Below are positions 2,575 to 60,024 of a stretch of 64,000 nucleotides of DNA, in pieces. Origin of the DNA: Acidimicrobiia bacterium (GTDB lineage Bacteria > Actinomycetota > Acidimicrobiia > IMCC26256 > JACDBD01); NCBI GenBank assembly GCA_035637335.1, contig DASPXI010000046.1, positions 1,311-65,310 of the forward strand, given 5' to 3'. Each line of letters opens with the position of its first letter. The first letter of the stretch is position 1. The notes under the pieces were generated by a model. It made no database searches. It saw only the letters and a program-made list of their open reading frames with translations, and had not been told where the DNA came from. The translations under genes were made by a program, and so were the position numbers.

Positions 2575-2632
2575 CCTTTCGCCGTCGCAAGCTCCGGCTG
2601 TGCAGCGACGGTCGGCAAAGCCGCCGTCGCTG
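2575..2632 (-). promoter_or_regulatory. Three-box leader element, copy A
   Basis: Minus-strand sequence GCGACGGCGGCTTTGCCGACCGTCGCTGCACAGCCGGAGCTTGCGACGGCGAAAGGAAG. It is near-identical to the copies at 31570, 38545 and 41106. Confidence 0.65.
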
Positions 2633-2638
2633 CCGCCG

Positions 2639-7607: not shown

Positions 7608-8600
7608 CTATCGGACGACGGTCTCCGCCAGCTCGGCCAGTGACACCAACGGCCGCGCCCCGAAGTGCGAGATGACCTCGGCGGCCGCCGCCGCACCGAG
7701 GCGCCCGCACGTGGCGAGGTCGAGACCACGGGTGAGGCCGTAGAGGAAGCCGGCCGCGTACTGGTCGCCGGCGCCCGTCGTGTCGACGACACGGTCGATC
7801 GGATGCGCGTCGATGACATGAACTTCGTCGCCGGCAACGACCACCGACCCCCGCTCGCTGCGAGTCAACGCCGCGATCTGGCAGTGCCCCCGCACGCGCT
7901 GCAGCGCGGCGTCGAAGTCGTCGACCTCGTACAGCGAGCAGATCTCGGTCTCGTTCGCGAAGAGCACGTCGATCTCGTCCTCGACAAGGGCACGGAACTC
8001 CGAACGGTGCCGGTCGACGCAGAACGGGTCCGACAGTGTGAGCGCAACCCGCCGGCCGGCGTCTCGCGCTGCCGCCGCGGCTTTGCGGATGGCGTTCTTC
8101 GCCGGCGGCTGGTCCCACAGGTACCCCTCGAGGTACGTCACTTGGGCCCGGGCGACGACGGCGGGGTCCACGTCCTCGGGCCCGATGAACGTCGACGCGC
8201 CGAGATACGTGCACTGGGTGCGCTGCGCGTCAGGGGTCACCATCACGAGACAGCGGCCCGTCGCCGGTCCCGCGGTGGCAGGTGGGACGTCGAAGTGGAC
8301 GCCGAGGGAGCGAAGGTCGTGCGTATACACCTTGCCGAGCTGGTCGTCACGGACACGCCCGATGAACGCAACCGAAGCCCCGAAGGACGCCAGGCCCGCG
8401 ATCGTGTTCGCGCACGACCCACCCGAGATCTCCTGGGCCGGGGGCAGGTCGGCGTACACGGCCTCGGCGCGGTCGAGCTCGACCATCGTCGTCGCGCCGT
8501 GAGGGAAGTCGTGCGCCTCGATGAAGTCGTCGTCGACGGTGCTGATGACGTCGACGAGCGCGTTCCCGATCCCGACGACGTCGAAGTCCGCTTCGGTCAT
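7608..8600 (-). CDS. PfkB-family carbohydrate/adenosine kinase
   Basis: The C-terminal 330 aa of track ORF 7608..9203 (GIGNALVD..., DTTGAGD). ATG 8600 forms an ATGA overlap with the fbiC stop. The upstream extension is Arg/Pro-rich and overlaps fbiC. Confidence 0.8.
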   Translation of the reverse strand: MTEADFDVVGIGNALVDVISTVDDDFIEAHDFPHGATTMVELDRAEAVYADLPPAQEISGGSCANTIAGLASFGASVAFIGRVRDDQLGKVYTHDLRSLGVHFDVPPATAGPATGRCLVMVTPDAQRTQCTYLGASTFIGPEDVDPAVVARAQVTYLEGYLWDQPPAKNAIRKAAAAARDAGRRVALTLSDPFCVDRHRSEFRALVEDEIDVLFANETEICSLYEVDDFDAALQRVRGHCQIAALTRSERGSVVVAGDEVHVIDAHPIDRVVDTTGAGDQYAAGFLYGLTRGLDLATCGRLGAAAAAEVISHFGARPLVSLAELAETVVR

Positions 8601-10975
8601 CGAGGCGTGGCGGGAGCCGTCCCCACGAACGCGACGGGTGCGGCCTGATTGCCGTTGCCGTTCGCGTGCTCGCCCGCCGGCGGCCGGAGGCGCCGGCCCA
8701 GGGTTCGCGTGCGCCCGTACAGGGTCGTGCGCTGCTCGAGGGTGCGGCCCAGCGGCTCGACGATCTGGCGGAACTCGTGCTCGTCGAGCTCCTGGCCGTG
8801 GCTGGCGCCCGCCGCCCGGGAGATGTTCTCGTCCATGAGCGTCCCGCCGAGGTCGTTGGCACCGGCCTTCAGCGCCTGCTGCGCACCGTCGACGCCCATC
8901 TTCACCCACGACACCTGGATGTTGTCGATGCACCCGCGGTATGCGATGCGCGCCGCGGCATGGATGAGCACGGCTTCTCGGAACGTCGGACCGGGACGGG
9001 CGCGGTGCTGCAGGAAGATCGGGCTCGCCATGTGGACGAAGGGGAGCGGCACGAACTCGGTGAACCCGCCCGTCTCCTTCTGCAGCGCGCGCGTCCGCAC
9101 CATGTGACGAGCGACGTGGATCGGCTGCTCGACGTGCCCGAACATGATCGTGATGTTCGAGCGCAGGCCGATCGAATGGGCGATGCGGTGCGCTTCGAGC
9201 CACTCGTCAGTGGTGACCTTGTCGGGGCAGATCACGGCGCGCACGTCGTCGTCGAGAATCTCTGCCGCCGTGCCGGGCAGAGTCGACAACCCGGCATCCT
9301 TGGCGAGAAGCAGGTAGTCGCGCAGCGGCATGTCGAGGCGGCGCGCGCCCTCGGTGACCTCGAGCGCGGTGAACGCGTGGACGTGGATGTCGGGCGCCAC
9401 TTCTTTCACGGCGCGGGCGACCGACAGGTAATAGTCGCCGTCGAAGTCCGGGTGGATGCCGCCCTGGAGGCAGACCTCGGTCGCGCCGCAGTCAACCGCC
9501 TCTACGACGCGGCGCTGGATCTCCTCGTGGTCGAGGAGGTACGGGGTGCCGCGCAGGTTCAGCGAGAGCGGGCCCTTCGAGAACGCGCAGAAGCGGCACT
9601 TGAACGTGCAGACGTTCGTGTAGTTGATGTTGCGGTTACGGACGAACGTGACGACGTCCCCGACGGCGTGACGTCGCAGGTCGTCGGCCACCTCGCAGAC
9701 ACGAGCCAGCTCCGGCCCGCGCGCTGACAGCAGTGTGACGAGCTCCTCGATACCGACCTCGGCGCCGGTGACGACGCCGTCCAGCACCTCGCCGACGGGA
9801 CCGCCGGCGTGCGCGCGAGCGGGGATGAGCCGCGGTGGATGCTCGGTTCCGCCCGCCGACCACGCGTCCTCGCGCGCGAGGCCGTCGCCGTCGGATGCGA
9901 GCAGGACCGGGAAACGCACGTCGGGATGCTGCCAGTGCTCCGCGTCGCGCACGTACTCCGGGTACACCGTCAGGCGCGGCGCGAGCACCTTCCCGGCCGC
10001 CTCGGTAGCCGCGCGCAGTCGTTCGAGCGCCGGCCACGGACGCTCGGGGTTGACGTGGTCGATCGTGACCGGTGAGACGCCACCCCAGTCGTCGATACCG
10101 GCGGCGACGAGGACGCCGAGGTCGTCGCTCAGGTTGGGCGGTGCCTGCACGTGCATGTCGGGACCGAGCACGAGCCGGGCCGCGGCAACCGTCCACACGA
10201 ACTCGTCGCGATCGCACGCCGGGTGCTGGTGCATAGCTGTGCCCGGCTTGGGAAGGAAGTTCTGAACGATCACTTCCTGCACGTGCCCGTGGCGAGCATG
10301 GCTTTCGCGGATGGCGATCAGTGCGTCGATGCGCTCCGCGCGCGTCTCGCCGATGCCGACGAGGATGCCGGTTGTGAACGTCACCTGCGCCACCCCGGCC
10401 GCCTCCAGCGTGGCCAGCCGCCGCGCCGGTGTCTTGTCGGGGGCGCCGTGGTGCGGCCCGCCCGGCTCGCCCAGCCGGGCCGCCAGGGTCTCGATCATCA
10501 TTCCTTGGGACGGGCTGACGGCGCGCAGCCGCTCCAGCTCTTCCTGCGAGAGCGCGCCGGCGTTGGCGTGCGGCAGCAACCCCGTCTCTGCGAGCACGGC
10601 GCCGCACGCGGCGGCGAGGTAGTCGACGGTCGAGTCGTAGCCGTGGTCGCCGAGCCATTCGCGTGCGGTGGCGTAGCGGTCCTCGGGCGCCTCGCCCAAT
10701 GTGAAGAGGGCCTCGTGACAGCCGGCGGCGGTCCCCCGGCGTGCGACGTCGAGCACCTCGTCGAGCGAGAGGTACGGCGACTCCAGCCGCGCCGGCGGCT
10801 TGGCGAACGTGCAGTAGCCGCAGCGGTCGCGGCACAGCATCGTCAGCGGTATGAAGACCTTGGGCGAGAACGTGATCCGGTCGCCGTGACCGCGATCGCG
10901 AACCCGGCCGGCCTCCACGACGATCTCTTCGAGAGGAACGTCGACGAGATGCTGCGCCTCCGCCGCGCTGAGCAT
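8597..10975 (-). CDS. fbiC: Bifunctional FO synthase (CofG/CofH fusion) for coenzyme F420
   Basis: 792 aa with two radical-SAM CxxxCxxC motifs (CRDRCGYCTF and CTFKCRFCAF). Confidence 0.9.
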   Translation of the reverse strand: MLSAAEAQHLVDVPLEEIVVEAGRVRDRGHGDRITFSPKVFIPLTMLCRDRCGYCTFAKPPARLESPYLSLDEVLDVARRGTAAGCHEALFTLGEAPEDRYATAREWLGDHGYDSTVDYLAAACGAVLAETGLLPHANAGALSQEELERLRAVSPSQGMMIETLAARLGEPGGPHHGAPDKTPARRLATLEAAGVAQVTFTTGILVGIGETRAERIDALIAIRESHARHGHVQEVIVQNFLPKPGTAMHQHPACDRDEFVWTVAAARLVLGPDMHVQAPPNLSDDLGVLVAAGIDDWGGVSPVTIDHVNPERPWPALERLRAATEAAGKVLAPRLTVYPEYVRDAEHWQHPDVRFPVLLASDGDGLAREDAWSAGGTEHPPRLIPARAHAGGPVGEVLDGVVTGAEVGIEELVTLLSARGPELARVCEVADDLRRHAVGDVVTFVRNRNINYTNVCTFKCRFCAFSKGPLSLNLRGTPYLLDHEEIQRRVVEAVDCGATEVCLQGGIHPDFDGDYYLSVARAVKEVAPDIHVHAFTALEVTEGARRLDMPLRDYLLLAKDAGLSTLPGTAAEILDDDVRAVICPDKVTTDEWLEAHRIAHSIGLRSNITIMFGHVEQPIHVARHMVRTRALQKETGGFTEFVPLPFVHMASPIFLQHRARPGPTFREAVLIHAAARIAYRGCIDNIQVSWVKMGVDGAQQALKAGANDLGGTLMDENISRAAGASHGQELDEHEFRQIVEPLGRTLEQRTTLYGRTRTLGRRLRPPAGEHANGNGNQAAPVAFVGTAPATPR

Positions 10976-11024
10976 GCTCGCAGCCTAGGCGTCGATAGAG
11001 GCGGTTCCGACCGCTTGCTCCAAG

Positions 11025-17530: not shown

Positions 17531-17910
17531 GGGGCGGGAATCGCGGTCAGCGGCACCACCACGGTGGAGCCGGACTCGGTGATCGTACAATGGGCTTCGA
17601 TGGTGCCGGGCTCCGGGAACTCCAGCTCGGGGCGCACGAGCCGGTAGCCGAACTTGCCCGGTTCGACCGAGAACTGCTGCACGTTGCGCGCGATCTCGTC
17701 GCCGTCGCGGGTGAAGACGGCCTCGAACGTGCCGACGCCACTGTCGTCGGCGGGCGCGCGCACGAGCACGATGAGGTGCGGCGTGAGGTGGGCGGGGAAC
17801 TCGGCAACGGGCTCCGAGAAGAACGCGCCCGTGATGTCGATGCGGGTCGACGGGCCGGGAACCTGGCGGAAGTTGAGGTTCTCCACGAAGAGCGCCGCCA
17901 CGATGTCCAT
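17527..17910 (-). CDS. Hypothetical protein (127 aa)
   Basis: C-terminal part of track ORF 17527..18234, starting at ATG 17910 (MDIVAALFVENLNF...). Coupled to the FIST gene. No family recognised. Confidence 0.5.
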   Translation of the reverse strand: MDIVAALFVENLNFRQVPGPSTRIDITGAFFSEPVAEFPAHLTPHLIVLVRAPADDSGVGTFEAVFTRDGDEIARNVQQFSVEPGKFGYRLVRPELEFPEPGTIEAHCTITESGSTVVVPLTAIPAP

Positions 17911-17956
17911 CACTCTGAGGCTAGCGAGGTCGGTCGCCTGCGTAATCTGGCTCGCC

Positions 17957-31352: not shown

Positions 31353-31565
31353 ATGTCCGGCAGCGATGCTGTGTGGCCGATCGTCGCGTTCTTTGTGGCT
31401 TTCATCGGCGGAACCCTGGTCACGGTCGGAAGCCTCGGGTTCATCTTCCGGTGGATGAACAGCGACGACGATGACAGCAGGTTCGACCTGTCTCCGTCGG
31501 AGACGATCGCCCAGGCCGTGCCGAAGACGAGGGCCGGTTGGGGCGGCGACGCTACCGAGGGCTGA
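31353..31565 (+). CDS. Small membrane protein (70 aa), hypothetical
   Basis: Track ORF with one clear TM helix (WPIVAFFVAFIGGTLVTVGSLGFIF). The stop lies 4 nt before three-box copy B. Confidence 0.35.
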   Translation: MSGSDAVWPIVAFFVAFIGGTLVTVGSLGFIFRWMNSDDDDSRFDLSPSETIAQAVPKTRAGWGGDATEG

Positions 31566-31569
31566 CGCG

Positions 31570-31660
31570 GCGACGGCGGCTTTGCCGACTGCCGTTGCAA
31601 AGCCCGAGCATGCGAGGGCGACAGAGAAGCAGAGCCGGAGCTTGCGACGGCGCCAGACAG
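31570..31660 (+). promoter_or_regulatory. Three-box element, copy B (orphan, with a tandemly duplicated 3' half)
   Basis: GCGACGGCGGCTTTGCCGACTGCCGTTGCAAAGCCCGAGCATGCGAGGGCGACAGAGAAGCAGAGCCGGAGCTTGCGACGGCGCCAGACAG. Confidence 0.6.
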
Positions 31661-38531: not shown

Positions 38532-38537
38532 TACGCT
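38532..38537 (+). promoter_or_regulatory. Candidate -10 box (TACGCT) for pafA
   Basis: TANNNT hexamer ending 7 nt before box 1 of copy C (10 nt before its GACGG core). Confidence 0.35.
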
Positions 38538-38544
38538 CCGCGCG

Positions 38545-38598
38545 GGGACGGCGGCTTTGCTGACCGTCACCGCAAAGCCGGAGCTTGCGACGGCGACA
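38545..38598 (+). promoter_or_regulatory. Three-box leader element, copy C
   Basis: GGGACGGCGGCTTTGCTGACCGTCACCGCAAAGCCGGAGCTTGCGACGGCGACA. It is followed by GGAGGAA and the pafA GTG. Confidence 0.65.
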
Positions 38599-38608
38599 AT
38601 GGAGGAAC

Positions 38609-39967
38609 GTGGAGCGCCGAATCTTCGGTCTCGAGAACGAGTACGGGGTCACGTGCACGCTTCGCGGCCAGCGTCGCCTGAGCCCCGACGAGGTGGCGCG
38701 CTATCTGTTCCGCCGCGTCGTCTCGTGGGGTCGGTCCAGCAACGTGTTCCTGGAGAACGGCGCCCGGCTCTACCTGGACGTGGGCAGCCACCCCGAGTAC
38801 GCCACGCCCGAGTGCGATTCGATCGACGACCTCGTCGTGCACGACAAAGCGGGCGAGCGAATCCTCGAAGGTCTCGTACGCAGCGCGGAGCAGCGCCTGC
38901 GCGAAGAAGGCATCCGAGGCGAGGTGTTCCTGTTCAAGAACAACACCGACTCGGCCGGCAACTCCTACGGCTGCCATGAGAACTACCTCGTCGAGCGCGA
39001 CGGCGACTTCGCCAAGTTCACCGACGTGCTCATCCCGTTCCTGGTGACCCGGCAGGTCTATGCGGGCGCAGGAAAGGTTCTCCAGACCGCCCGTGGGGCC
39101 ATGTATTGCGTCAGCCAGCGGGCCGAGCACATCTGGGAGGGCGTGTCCAGCGCCACGACCCGGTCCCGACCGATCATCAACACGCGTGACGAGCCTCATG
39201 CCGACGCCGAGCGCTTCCGGCGACTGCACGTGATCGTCGGCGACTCGAACATGAGCGAGTACACGACGTTCCTGAAGATCGGCGCGACCTCGGTGGTCCT
39301 GAGGATGCTCGAAGAGGACGCCAGCCCTTGGCGTGATCTCACGCTCGAGAACCCGATCCGCGCCATCCGCGAGATCAGCCACGACCTGACCTGCCGCCGC
39401 CGGGTGCGTCTCGCCAACGGCCGCGAGCTGTCGGCGATCGAGATCCAGGCCGAGTACCTCAACCGCGCGCTGCGCTTCGCCAAGCGCCGCGGGCTCGCGC
39501 CGCTCGAGGAGCAGGCGTTGCGTATGTGGGAGCAGGCCATGGTCCGCCTGCAGGACGACCCGCTGTCCCTCGACACCGAGGTCGACTGGGTCATCAAGTA
39601 CCACCTCATCGAGGCGTACCGGAAGCGACACGACCTTCCGCTGACGCACCCGCGTATCGCCTTGCTCGACCTCTCGTATCACGACGTGACGCGCGCGCGT
39701 TCGCTCTACTACCTCCTCGAGCGACGCGGACAGCTCCAGCGCACCGTTCGGGACAGGGACATCGAGAATGCGGTGACGACCCCTCCCCAGACCACCCGAG
39801 CCCGACTTCGGGGCGCGTTCATCAAGCGGGCCAAGGAGCGCAAGCGTGACTACACGGTCGACTGGGTCCACCTGAAGCTGAACGACCAGGCCCAGCGCAC
39901 CGTCCTCTGCAAGGACCCGTTCAAAGCGCGCGACGACCGCGTCGAGCGGCTCATCTCTTCGCTGTAG
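38609..39967 (+). CDS. pafA: Pup--protein ligase PafA
   Basis: [16 protein letters not shown]...[47 protein letters not shown] closely matches my recollection of mycobacterial PafA. GTG 38609 is chosen over the track TTG 38585, which lies inside the leader element. Confidence 0.92.
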
Positions 39968-40041: not shown

Positions 40042-41109
40042 ATGCCGTCGTTTCGGTCGGGGAAGGTGACGCGGCTGCTCGTCGAGCGGCCGGGGTTGCA
40101 GCGCGTCGAAGTCGATCTCGGCGAGGGCCCCGAGCCGGCGTATGTGCTGACGCAGCTGACCGGGACCGTGGCAGTGGGTGATCGGATCGTCGTCAACACC
40201 ACCGCCGTCGAGCTCGGGCTCGGCACGGGCGGCTGGCACGTCGTGCACTGGAACCTCGAACGCGAGTCGTGGGCGGAGCGGGGACCGGGGCACATCATCA
40301 AGGGCCGCTACACGAGCCTCCAAGCCGACGTCGGCAGCACCGAAGAGCACCTCGAAGAGCTGGCCGCGGTCGAGTCGGTCGACGGTATGCCGGTCGTGGC
40401 CGCAGCGCTGCACAGTCAGCTCGCGGCGGCGGCCGTCGCGTTCAAGGAGCGCGCGCCTGACGCGCGGCTGGTGTACGTGATGACCGATGGCGCCGGGCTA
40501 CCGCTCGCGCTGTCGGACCTGGTGTTCGCGCTTCGAGAACGCGGGCTCGTCGACGCCACCGTGACGTGCGGTCACGCCTTCGGCGGTGACTTCGAAGCCG
40601 TGTCGATCTTCTCCGCACTCGCAGTCGCCAGACACGCCGCTGGCGCCGACGCAGTGGTCGTCGCGATGGGACCGGGCATCGTGGGTACGAACAGCCGGCT
40701 CGGATTCTCGGGTATGGAGGTGGGTTCGATCCTCGACGCCGCCGTCGCCCTCGGTGGACAGCCCATCGCTTGCTTGCGGGTCTCGTTCGCCGATCCTCGG
40801 GCGCGCCACGTCGGGCTCTCGCACCACTCCCGTACGGCGCTGCGGCTCGCGTGTCGCGAGCGAGTGGCGGTGGCCGTTCCGAACCTCGCCGGCGATCACG
40901 GCACCCGCCTCCGGGCCGACCTCGAGGACGCGGGCATCGAGCAGCGCCACGATCTGATCGAAGTGACGCCGCCGGACGTGCTCGACCTGTTCGAGCGCCA
41001 CGCCCTCGAGGTCACCTCGATGGGCCGAGCGGCCGCCGACGACCCCGCCCTGTTCCTCGCGGCGGCCGCGGCCGGAGTGCTGGCCGCCGATCGTGCGCGC
41101 CCGCGATGA
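40042..41109 (+). CDS. DUF3866 family protein
   Basis: 355 aa. The N-terminus MPSFRSGKVTRLL...VNTTAVELGLGTGGWHVV matches my recollection of the DUF3866 family. It sits between pafA and pafBC. Confidence 0.7.
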   Translation: MPSFRSGKVTRLLVERPGLQRVEVDLGEGPEPAYVLTQLTGTVAVGDRIVVNTTAVELGLGTGGWHVVHWNLERESWAERGPGHIIKGRYTSLQADVGSTEEHLEELAAVESVDGMPVVAAALHSQLAAAAVAFKERAPDARLVYVMTDGAGLPLALSDLVFALRERGLVDATVTCGHAFGGDFEAVSIFSALAVARHAAGADAVVVAMGPGIVGTNSRLGFSGMEVGSILDAAVALGGQPIACLRVSFADPRARHVGLSHHSRTALRLACRERVAVAVPNLAGDHGTRLRADLEDAGIEQRHDLIEVTPPDVLDLFERHALEVTSMGRAAADDPALFLAAAAAGVLAADRARPR

Positions 41110-41160
41110 CGGCGGCTTTGCCGACCGTCATCGCAGGAGCCGGAGCTCGCGACGGCGACA
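41106..41160 (+). promoter_or_regulatory. Three-box leader element, copy D
   Basis: ATGACGGCGGCTTTGCCGACCGTCATCGCAGGAGCCGGAGCTCGCGACGGCGACA. Box 1 contains the DUF3866 stop codon. The element ends 8 nt before the pafB ATG. Confidence 0.65.
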
Positions 41161-41168
41161 GGTAGCGC

Positions 41169-42098
41169 ATGATCGACCGGCTCGAGCGGCTCACCAATCT
41201 CGTCGCCACGCTGCTCGACACGCGGCGGCCGCTCACGCTGGACGAGATCGTCGAGCTCGTGCCCGGCTACCCGGACGACAAGCTCGCGCATCGCCGTCAG
41301 TTCGAGCGCGACAAGGAGACACTGCGGGGCATCGGAATCCCGGTCCGGCTCGAGCCGGTCGACGACCTCGGTCCGGAGCAGGGATATCGCATCCCGCCCG
41401 ACGAGTACTACCTGCCACCACTGGACCTCACGCCGGATGAGCAGGCGGCGCTGCACGTCGCGGTGACTGCGGTGCGCCTCGAGGGAGGGCCCGCGCCGGC
41501 AGAGGCGCTGTGGAAGCTCGGCGGCCGGGAAGGTGAAGCCGCGAACGCCCTGGCCGCGTTGCCGACCGTGTCGGCGCTGCCCGCGCTGTTCGACGCGTAC
41601 CGCTCGCGGGCGGCGGTGACGTTCACGTATCGGGGCGAGCTGCGGCGCGTCGACCCGTGGGGGATCCTGTTCCGGCGCGGGCACTGGTACGTCGTCGGCC
41701 ACGACCACGACCGCGGCGATCGCCGGTCGTTTCGCGTGGACCGCATCGAAGGGGATGTCGAGACGGGTCCGGCCCGGGCATTCGAGCCGCCGGCCCACCT
41801 CGAGCCGGCGGCGCTGCTCGGCGACGAACCCTGGCGTTACGGCGACGAGGAGGTCGTCTCCGCCCGCGTTGCAGTCGACGCCGCGCAAGCCGCGGCGATC
41901 GTGGAGCAGGTCGGTGAGGATGCGGTCGTCGAACGTCGAGACGACGGGAGCGTCGTGGTGGAGCTCTCGGTCACGAACACCGCTGCTTTCAGATCGTTCG
42001 TCCTCGGGCTCCTGGACGCCGCGGAGGTCATCTCCCCCCCGGAGCTCCGCGACGAGATGCGCGCCTGGCTCGACGCGCTCGCTCGGAGCGACACGTGA
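41169..42098 (+). CDS. pafB: HTH-WYL transcriptional regulator PafB
   Basis: 309 aa with an N-terminal wHTH (LTLDEIVELVPGY) and a WYL domain (RRGHWYVVGHD). Position is right after pafA. Confidence 0.85.
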   Translation: MIDRLERLTNLVATLLDTRRPLTLDEIVELVPGYPDDKLAHRRQFERDKETLRGIGIPVRLEPVDDLGPEQGYRIPPDEYYLPPLDLTPDEQAALHVAVTAVRLEGGPAPAEALWKLGGREGEAANALAALPTVSALPALFDAYRSRAAVTFTYRGELRRVDPWGILFRRGHWYVVGHDHDRGDRRSFRVDRIEGDVETGPARAFEPPAHLEPAALLGDEPWRYGDEEVVSARVAVDAAQAAAIVEQVGEDAVVERRDDGSVVVELSVTNTAAFRSFVLGLLDAAEVISPPELRDEMRAWLDALARSDT

Positions 42099-59804: not shown

Positions 59805-60003
59805 CCCCGCTCTGTCCCGGGACCTGAGAGATTCACCGGCCGCCGGCGGCCGGCTTTCCCCGTCGGTGAGACCCCGGCCGTGACCGGTGCCCGCTCTCCA
59901 GAGGTGCCTCGCCCGGGCGGTCCATTCGCCTGAGAGTTTCCGGGGAGGGGTTGCTCCTTCGGCTCCCCCGGCCGAGAACGGTCGGGGGGCTCTCCCGCTC
60001 GGG
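59805..60003 (-). ncRNA. Tandem glycine riboswitch (two aptamers) in the gcvP leader
   Basis: Minus-strand aptamer 1: GGGAGAG...GCCGAAGGAGCAA...CTCTCAGGC..GGAC. Aptamer 2: CTCTGGAGAG...CACCGACGGGGAAAG...CTCTCAGG..GGACAGAG. A GGGCCAC/GTGGCCC hairpin follows, then the Shine-Dalgarno. Confidence 0.85.
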
Positions 60004-60024
60004 TTCGACGGCTTTCCCGCGAGG

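Follow-up and report, generated by a model that had tools for sequence, protein, structure and literature searches.

Background

The 5' untranslated region (UTR) of ompA contains a 5'-terminal stem-loop that stabilises its mRNA, and it serves as the leader of a single gene. In the MIRUs of Mycobacterium, the ends of a small open reading frame (ORF) touch the preceding gene's stop codon and the following gene's start codon, and these repeats have been proposed as modulators of translation in polycistronic operons. Promoters governed by PafBC possess the motif TGTCRGTG-N8-TAnnnT. The regulator itself is described as constitutively present and as acting on promoter DNA at -26 by sigma adaptation (PMC10693628). 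According to a secondary account, MIRUs are units of 40-100 bp that lie between the genes of operons (PMC2734929, citing Supply et al. 1997). Small interspersed repeats that are co-transcribed with their neighbours have been reviewed and include BOX, RUP, SPRITE (Streptococcus pneumoniae), ERIC, REP/BIME and Correia (PMC3049150). The present analysis concerns a stretch of 64,000 nucleotides from an Acidimicrobiia bacterium (contig DASPXI010000046.1), referred to below as the window, in which a short element with two hairpins bridges the gene for a DUF3866 protein and pafB. A previous reading of the window from its letters alone (the sequence-only reading) had regarded this element, copy D, as an RNA between two cistrons that serves regulation or processing and recurs at pafA. 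Comparison with related genomes, whose loci are designated by L-numbers (L005, L121 etc.), indicates that copy D is probably an atypical, non-conserved member of a dispersed, leader-forming repeat of about 60 nt in uncultured soil Acidimicrobiia, rather than a PafBC switch.

Copy D and the repeat family

The DUF3866 gene (40042..41109, plus strand; Pfam PF12982, E = 8e-112) ends with the stop codon TGA at 41107-41109. The pafB gene (41169..42098, plus strand) encodes WYL and WCX domains (Pfam) and an N-terminus that can be aligned with its relatives, and the next gene after it encodes a PafC-type protein. The start codon of pafB is ATG in the window and GTG in relatives with an empty site. The order of parts at the junction is ...gcgcgccc GCGATGACGG CGGCTTTGCCGA CCGTCATCGC AGGA GCCGGAGCTCGCGACGGC GACA ggtagcgc ATG..., in which a covariance model of the repeat matches 41101-41162 (plus strand) and the conserved unit occupies 41103-41160. 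Hairpin P1 (41103..41134, plus strand) is formed by a perfect stem of 10 bp between the 5' arm GCGATGACGG (41103-41112), which includes the DUF3866 stop TGA, and the 3' arm CCGTCATCGC (41125-41134); nested within it is an inner stem CGGC/GCCG (41113-41116 / 41120-41123), whose loop is UUU, and the A at 41124 is bulged. Hairpin P3 (41139..41156, plus strand), GCCG-GA-G(CUCG)C-GA-CGGC, consists of an outer stem of 4 bp, a tandem G.A/A.G internal loop, a closing G-C pair and a tetraloop, and is present in the minimum-free-energy fold. This fold of the 62-nt copy has an energy of -36.2 kcal/mol (z = -4.65), and this structure accounts for 71% of the ensemble. The tail GACAGGTAGCGC (41157..41168, plus strand) is a degenerate version of the family's Shine-Dalgarno tail GACAGGAG (ACAGGAG type), in which AGGU (41160-41163) is weak and TAG (41163-41165) is in frame.

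Much of what had been described for this junction is borne out. ATGACGG is found at 41106-41112, with its TGA as the DUF3866 stop, CCGTCAT is found at 41125-41131, and the pafB ATG (41169) begins 8 nt after the end of the unit with no -10 box in between. The claim that there is no Shine-Dalgarno sequence is nearly right, apart from the weak AGGU. Neither a -10 box nor a terminator was seen at copy D on inspection of the junction, and the suggestion that pafB is expressed by read-through is plausible. A scan for promoters of the E. coli type gave zero matches, the E. coli model being uninformative for this phylum.

Within the window, the 22-mer GACGGCGGCTTTGCCGACCGTC occurs 4 times at no more than 2 mismatches, as against 0 in 100 shuffles, and a 27-mer from the second half likewise has 4 occurrences, as against 0 in shuffles. 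The covariance model, run over the 64 kb, recovers exactly four full copies and one half copy and nothing more. Copy A (covariance-model match 2575-2635, minus strand) would form the 5' UTR of an unannotatable 276-aa gene with a TTG start at 2567; a -10-like TACTCT stands 5 nt upstream of it and a Shine-Dalgarno sequence, AAGGAAG, follows it, while the protein has no Pfam or NCBIfam match. Copy C (38542..38598, plus strand; covariance-model match 38540-38600) would form the entire 5' UTR of pafA, with a -10-like TACGCT (38532-38537) 4 nt upstream, GGAGGA at 38601-38606 and the pafA GTG at 38609. Copy B (31565-31625, plus strand) stands immediately behind a 70-aa gene's TGA, opposite a ferredoxin gene that converges on it. 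The half copy behind it, at 31627-31657, is a duplicated module with P3 only; L005 lacks this module and has a single simple unit at the orthologous site. A full unit with an extra half unit is also encountered in L119, L108, L078 and L049, and several loci, that of copy B included, hold an additional P1-only or P3-only module. This recurrence of full and half units points to independent duplication of the two hairpin modules. Tandem arrays of at least two units with a repeated spacer are found at L058:3947-4100, L053:484-595 and L092:3671-3798; the L058 array has a periodicity of about 77 nt and shares its GATGAC arm with copy D.

Contigs of soil metagenomes that are annotated as Acidimicrobiia are identical to the window. 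Beyond the window, the species representatives of a genome collection were scanned with a pattern that demanded both halves of the unit, and at least 111 stretches carrying both were found. Among the matches listed, all but four, which are due to chance, belong to 19 uncultured Acidimicrobiia/Actinomycetota metagenome-assembled genomes with 1-11 loci each. A search of the retrieved loci with nhmmer yielded at least 148 full-length and about 8 partial copies of the ~60-nt unit. Three relatives with 76-80% DUF3866 identity have no copy within 21 kb each, and plasmid and phage collections gave no match to the repeat. At the gathering threshold, the Rfam matches in the window are confined to two glycine aptamers outside the repeat, which is left unmatched; in a permissive Rfam scan of copy C the best E was 5.6. 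No earlier description of this repeat was found in the literature.

The genes downstream of the copies are diverse. In total, 84 Pfam families were identified among the proteins encoded after 79 copies, with a maximum of 4 per family, and examples include methylmalonyl-CoA mutase, PRPP synthetase, chorismate mutase, transketolase, Lgt, UppS and P450. The ends of the repeat unit are direct copies of GCGACGGCG, and the inverted repeat P1 is internal to its left half. In an alignment of 123 distinct copies (A5), no conserved target motif is seen 5' of the unit. The type of linker (A, G or GG) is linked to the type of tail (ACA, CCA or ACC; A5 columns 39-40 vs 62-64), and three main linker/tail combinations are represented by 27, 24 and 14 copies. 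The association of G39 with C64 in A5 could be a further base pair or a mere subfamily marker.

Secondary structure and covariation

The structural model tested on A5 consisted of P1, its inner CGGC/GCCG extension and P3. Under this model 95.6% of the alignment cells are paired, as against 19-66% when the registers are slid by 1-3 columns. Cells with changes on both sides of a pair number 78, compared with 15.5 +/- 3.3 in shuffles (0 of 500 shuffles attain the observed value), and mutual information recovers the same pairs. G.U (or U.G) occurs 72 times in the stems and A.C 16 times; the constraint therefore acts on the strand of the element, and neither these numbers nor the double changes are predicted by a dimeric operator that is read as sequence. 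The G.U excess is present in both context classes, although these are crude, since the gene caller, based on GC3, put several genuine leaders, copy A among them, in the wrong class and the context counts are qualitative only. Tandem G.A internal loops and CUUG-type tetraloops are motifs typical of RNA, and P3 in its family form, GCCG-GA-G(CUUG)C-GA-CGGC, possesses both. At pair 45-57 of P3 in A5, 110 copies have G-C and 11 have C-G, and compensation at pair 44-58 is seen in L108 and L119. Among orthologous pafA leaders, one P3 pair is G-C in the window and L005, C-G in L121 and U-A in L123, and P1 shows a change from A-U to G-C. The thermodynamic folds of copies D, C and A agree with the covariation structure. 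Loop and linker sequences are almost invariant across the family, while P1 varies in sequence and stays paired. These patterns are those of a structure that is read on one strand, most plausibly as RNA. Orthologous copies are about 91% identical, as against 84-88% for their flanks, which argues for constraint on the unit or for homogenisation among copies.

The arms of copy D differ from those of copy A (GCAGCGACGG/CCGTCGCTGC) at three paired positions, with both arms changed, and this difference had been taken as the mark of an RNA helix. The helix is supported by the strand-specific covariation of the family, whereas the change in copy D did not evolve at this locus. The arm pair GCGATGACGG/CCGTCATCGC is also found at unrelated loci, twice in L058 and once in L089; the arms of copy D thus came with the copy and were not compensated on site. 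The second hairpin of the sequence-only reading, CGGCUUUGC : GCAGGAGCCG, is not supported. It is complementary on paper but is neither part of the predicted fold nor covarying; loop variants (UUC, UCG, UGU, AUU) leave the linker unchanged, and GCCG..CGGC covaries instead.

Two other pairings were considered and rejected. A pseudoknot of loop 1 (CGGCUUUGC) with the linker (GCAAAGCCG) is missing from the minimum-free-energy fold, its loop variants keep the linker, and the change of G45 to C is compensated within P3 instead. A loop-free junction across a stem of 10 bp is moreover sterically implausible. A switch between box 2 and box 3 was also discarded, as box 3 is invariant while box 2 varies.

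Position of the copies relative to promoters and start codons

A Shine-Dalgarno-like motif and the start of an ORF of at least 60 aa were identified within 70 nt of 82 of the 127 copies (~65%), and the start codons form a sharp peak 11-15 nt past box 3. On the other side, a hexamer TAnnnT (actinobacterial TAG/TAC type) ends 0-9 nt upstream, with a mode of 3-5 nt, in 38.6% of copies, compared with 0.42% of random positions. The family tail, GAC(A/C), usually runs into AGGAG, followed by 5-8 nt and the start codon. A typical copy would therefore, to judge from these positions, constitute a whole 5' UTR, approximately from the transcription start to the ribosome-binding site. No expression platform is recognisable in the unit, the tail with its Shine-Dalgarno sequence being unpaired in the minimum-free-energy fold and no U-tract being present.

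Gain and loss of copies

Filled and empty alleles were sought by joining both flanks of each copy and searching for the joined sequence in other loci, and at least 16 filled/empty pairs were obtained. Several of the empty alleles consist of a -10 hexamer, 6-8 nt and a start codon, which is the signature of leaderless genes. They include L094 against L022, L113 against L037 and L022 against L094/L043, and two sites on the minus strand of the window (17898-17925 and 10963-10990), whose orthologous sites are filled in L038 and L118. Both window sites show the leaderless-type arrangement of a -10 hexamer and a start codon, and a third site without the repeat (8582-8605, minus strand) is filled in L087.

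The pafA gene appears to give the polarity of such changes. No element precedes it in L122, L124 and the outgroups L007-L009, where TACGCT (TAGCGT in L007) is followed after 6-7 nt by the start codon (L122:1590-1615 and L124:1580-1606, for example), and the element is present in the clade of the window, L005, L121 and L123, with GGAGGA before the GTG. A leaderless pafA would thus have become leadered through the insertion of copy C. Only units that bring their own Shine-Dalgarno sequence would be tolerated in the short gap between -10 and start codon, and this may be the reason why copies start near the -10 hexamer.

Repeats at the junctions of the 16 filled/empty pairs measure 3-10 nt in some cases (for example, GCGACGCTGG in L061/L058) and are lacking in others. 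The junctions of copy D, L087, L037 and L061 had raised the possibility that P1 owes its variable 5' arm to copying of the target site (the start-codon region). When the 5' arm was compared with the gene start by permutation in 56 independent leaders, the best register gave p = 0.07 and no single register was significant, and this origin of the arm is not claimed.

The DUF3866/pafB junction in related lineages

In the sister lineage L005, the junction reads cgc CTG TGA tcg, with the GTG start overlapping the TGA stop, and is empty; overlaps of the same type, also empty, are found in L122, L124, L007 and L008. L009 (11060-11120) has a tandem duplication of the 5' end of pafB, with ATGAGCGAGCGGCTGGAGCGG present twice, and no element. 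The window, with cgc CCG CGA TGA cgg ... gcgc A TGA tcg, holds a full copy. L121 has the left junction of the window followed by the 5' arm and loop only, a half copy, and L123 retains a footprint, ...cgcGGATGAAATGatc. The junction element is consequently absent (6 lineages) or decayed (2) in 8/8 related lineages examined. Conservation of the paired substitutions in orthologous loci was the point at which the sequence-only reading had declared itself open to refutation, and by that criterion of its own, as far as these junctions go, the model is contradicted.

Copy D is not simply a recent insertion in this species, as the half copy of L121 and the footprint of L123 have the same junctions. 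On the evidence of these alleles, its history involves loss, allele exchange or re-insertion.

Copy D would have landed precisely in the 4-nt overlap of stop and start codons (ctG|TGA) between DUF3866 and pafB. Since it has no promoter of its own, pafB would still be transcribed by read-through. Translation is another matter: reinitiation needs an overlap or a very short spacer, with a cost of 40-80% at ~14 nt and abolition at ~20-40 nt (PMC10666635). Given these limits, a structured spacer of 59 nt should uncouple pafB, and the insertion would break the coupling by termination and reinitiation. The copy, however, supplies DUF3866 with an in-frame TGA and opens a mini-ORF (41106..41165, plus strand; translation MTAALPTVIAGAGARDGDR, then stop) of 19 codons that runs through both hairpins. 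Its ATG at 41106 overlaps the DUF3866 stop as ATGA, and its TAG at 41163-41165 lies 3 nt before the new pafB ATG at 41169 and in frame with pafB, as the tail of copy D reads GGTAG where the family tail is normally GGAG (Shine-Dalgarno). In the truncated copy of L121, from which P3 and the 3' arm have been lost, a frame of 9 codons likewise started by ATGA ends 1 nt before the pafB ATG. This geometry suggests that the mini-ORF probably preserves the translational coupling of DUF3866 and pafB, terminating ribosomes being relayed from the one to the other. The hairpins of copy D would be incidental to such a relay, and the RNA structure at this site is probably neutral or mildly inhibitory.

Explanations of the repeat

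The account that appears best supported, and probable for copy D, is that of a dispersed leader-forming repeat. The unit follows one plan: a P1 of 10 bp, variable and paired, is capped by the invariant CGGC-UUU-GCCG with its bulged A and followed by linker, P3 and tail. As most copies begin 3-5 nt after a -10 hexamer, the hairpin would be located at the transcript's 5' end or close to it and leave the ribosome-binding site exposed. Selection on the transcribed strand appears to have kept the hairpins. The unit would convert leaderless genes into leadered, Shine-Dalgarno-dependent ones, with pafA as the polarised case, and its role may be that of a generic leader for mRNA stabilisation and translation initiation rather than that of a signal-specific switch.

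Several observations weigh against this account. By visual estimate, about 17% of copies border on a tRNA or on the stop codon of a convergent gene, and about one third have no start codon next to them, so that a leader role accounts for part of the family only. The 16 filled/empty pairs show neither terminal inverted repeats nor a consistent target-site duplication. The window and L121 share their junctions though the sister L005 is empty, a pattern that requires either an exchange of alleles or a second insertion of very high site specificity. In DNA of 70% G+C, 19 codons without a stop are not rare, and the relay ORF could be fortuitous. Finally, the strand-specific hairpin signal could stem from single-stranded DNA.

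An extension of the leader-forming account holds that the repeat is a portable, RNA-structured 5'-UTR cassette which inserts into the 6-8 nt gap between -10 and start codon of leaderless genes, and that its invariant loops are read by a shared trans-acting factor, giving a genome-wide post-transcriptional regulon. This is offered tentatively, as a conceivable but doubtful extension. If true, the cassette would rewire leaderless genes to Shine-Dalgarno-dependent initiation, and a regulon would have been built from a repeat in an uncultured actinobacterial clade.

A regulon without the emphasis on insertion is also unlikely, that is, a cis-regulatory RNA bound by one trans-acting factor (protein, small RNA or metabolite) and controlling a global post-transcriptional set of genes that includes pafA and pafB. 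The near invariance of loops and linkers, beside a P1 that keeps its pairing only, is what such a factor would require, and the greater conservation of orthologous copies relative to their flanks, the compensatory changes among orthologous pafA leaders and the fixed place between -10 and Shine-Dalgarno sequence are in its favour. The downstream genes, however, share no function. Nor is the Shine-Dalgarno sequence sequestered or any terminator or alternative fold conserved, and box 3 does not covary with box 2. Copies are gained and lost between close relatives, and copy D decays without replacement; linked subfamily markers and duplications of tandem and half units are typical of repeats that copy and spread. 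Rfam, too, offers no match. Compared with riboswitches and gene-specific leader RNAs, the family shows covariation and lacks a match in Rfam, coherent genes, orthologous conservation and an expression platform; a regulon or riboswitch was rejected on account of the heterogeneous downstream genes.

According to a further explanation, the hairpins serve in DNA, as substrates of an HUH/Y1 transposase in the style of IS200/IS605 or REP-RAYT or as quasi-palindromes kept by templated repair, and any effects on RNA are incidental. Hairpins at both ends of the unit, the lack of terminal inverted repeats and of a regular target-site duplication, and the frequent gain and loss with formation of subfamilies would all agree with this. 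So would the strand-specific bias, as G.T is the best-tolerated mismatch in DNA too, and the G.U excess in both of the crude context classes. Against these points, no transposase was linked to the element, though whole genomes were not searched for one, and the unit is preceded by no conserved target motif. Co-directional downstream genes and a Shine-Dalgarno sequence at exact spacing fit a transcribed leader better than a bare transposon end, P3 with its tandem G.A and CUUG-type tetraloop resembles RNA, and orthologous copies hold their structure long after insertion. The explanation in terms of DNA is considered unlikely, though an origin from a single-stranded-DNA transposon is still a serious rival for the strand-specific hairpins.

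The proposal that copy D and the pafA copy form an autoregulatory node of PafBC is highly improbable: copies do precede both pafA and pafB, and the hairpin of copy D is real, stable and, with neither promoter nor terminator beside it, predicted to lie inside the operon transcript, but the element is genome-wide and not paf-specific, stands before genes of 84 unrelated Pfam families with no association with DNA-damage genes, is absent or decayed at the junction in all related lineages and absent at pafA in L122, L124 and L007-L009, lies downstream of -10 in copies A and C and inside an operon in copy D where PafBC is described as acting at -26 (PMC10693628), and has a proposed second hairpin that fails covariation, while the window contains no site for the PafBC/RecA-NDp motif TGTCRGTG-N7-9-TAnnnT.

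For the paf locus the outcome is thus negative, as the analysis yielded no evidence of autoregulation by PafBC through an RNA here and the sequence common to pafA and pafB is the repeat. The repeat, hitherto undescribed, has unusually clean covariation for a dispersed repeat and gives complete leaders to dozens of unrelated genes. As the same genes are leaderless or leadered among relatives, it offers a natural experiment on the evolution of translation initiation in Actinomycetota. Copy D is a testable case of insertion into a 4-nt stop/start overlap, maybe tolerated via the relay ORF. In annotation, copies may be mistaken for gene-specific regulatory motifs, as happened with copy D.

Other features of the window

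A tandem glycine riboswitch occupies 59810-60007 (minus strand) and comprises two aptamers with scores of 62.8 and 41.6 bits. Between pup and prcB of the Pup-proteasome cluster lies a gene of the Endonuclease_7 family (PF02945; 35776-36339, plus strand); it is found in L008 and L009 and not in L005 and L007, and is thus a variable insertion in a conserved operon. The octamer TGTCGGTG has 12 sites in the window (e.g. 4823, 13270, 32879, 42181), compared with 4.35 expected; none of them has TAnnnT at the spacing of PafBC promoters, and none is near the repeat copies. L002 (ENA record DNA_vOTU_2240, 301,680 bp) contains the sequence of the window under the name of a 'viral OTU' (operational taxonomic unit). 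It holds a complete Pup-proteasome, Tat and helicase neighbourhood and is probably a misclassified bacterial contig.

Comparison with known systems

With the PafBC-dependent promoters (PMC10693628), the locus has only the pafA-pafB-pafC neighbourhood in common; the element is read on one strand, is found at unrelated genes and has no RecA-NDp-like motif. Compared with MITEs, the miniature transposable elements with inverted repeats, the family shows many copies and polymorphism of presence and absence, and has no terminal inverted repeats. REP/BIME are short extragenic palindromes, enriched at 3' ends or between convergent genes, in genomes with a RAYT gene. Their habit of lying at 3' ends is not shared, since ~65% of copies are 5' leaders and only ~17% are at convergent gene ends.

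A leader of the ompA type would resemble the family in its stable hairpin within a few nt of the predicted 5' end, followed by an accessible ribosome-binding site. The two differ in that the present family is a repeated, portable unit and not the leader of one gene.

MIRUs, as far as the secondary account describes them, share with this family an actinobacterial host, a similar size, a place between operon genes and tandem copies. The small ORF of copy D touches the flanking stop and start codons as in MIRUs, a trait confined to copy D and the L121 remnant within the family. Unlike that of MIRUs, the relay ORF goes with the GATGAC variant of the arm alone, and most copies of the family are monocistronic 5' leaders with strong covarying hairpins; the likeness is one of arrangement.

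The closest resemblance is to the small repeats of the BOX, RUP, SPRITE, ERIC, REP and Correia kind. Unlike repeats of the BOX/RUP/ERIC type, the family is rich in G+C and not in A+T, its ends are direct repeats of GCGACGGCG, and it has neither terminal inverted repeats nor a clear target-site duplication; it also brings its own Shine-Dalgarno sequence at a fixed distance and mostly fills the exact space from -10 to start codon. In common with them, it is below 200 bp in length, strongly folded and intergenic, occurs in many copies per genome within a narrow clade, and is present or absent between close relatives, and an effect on the co-transcribed genes is to be expected. As in BOX, with its boxA, boxB and boxC, the unit is modular and its modules are duplicated independently.

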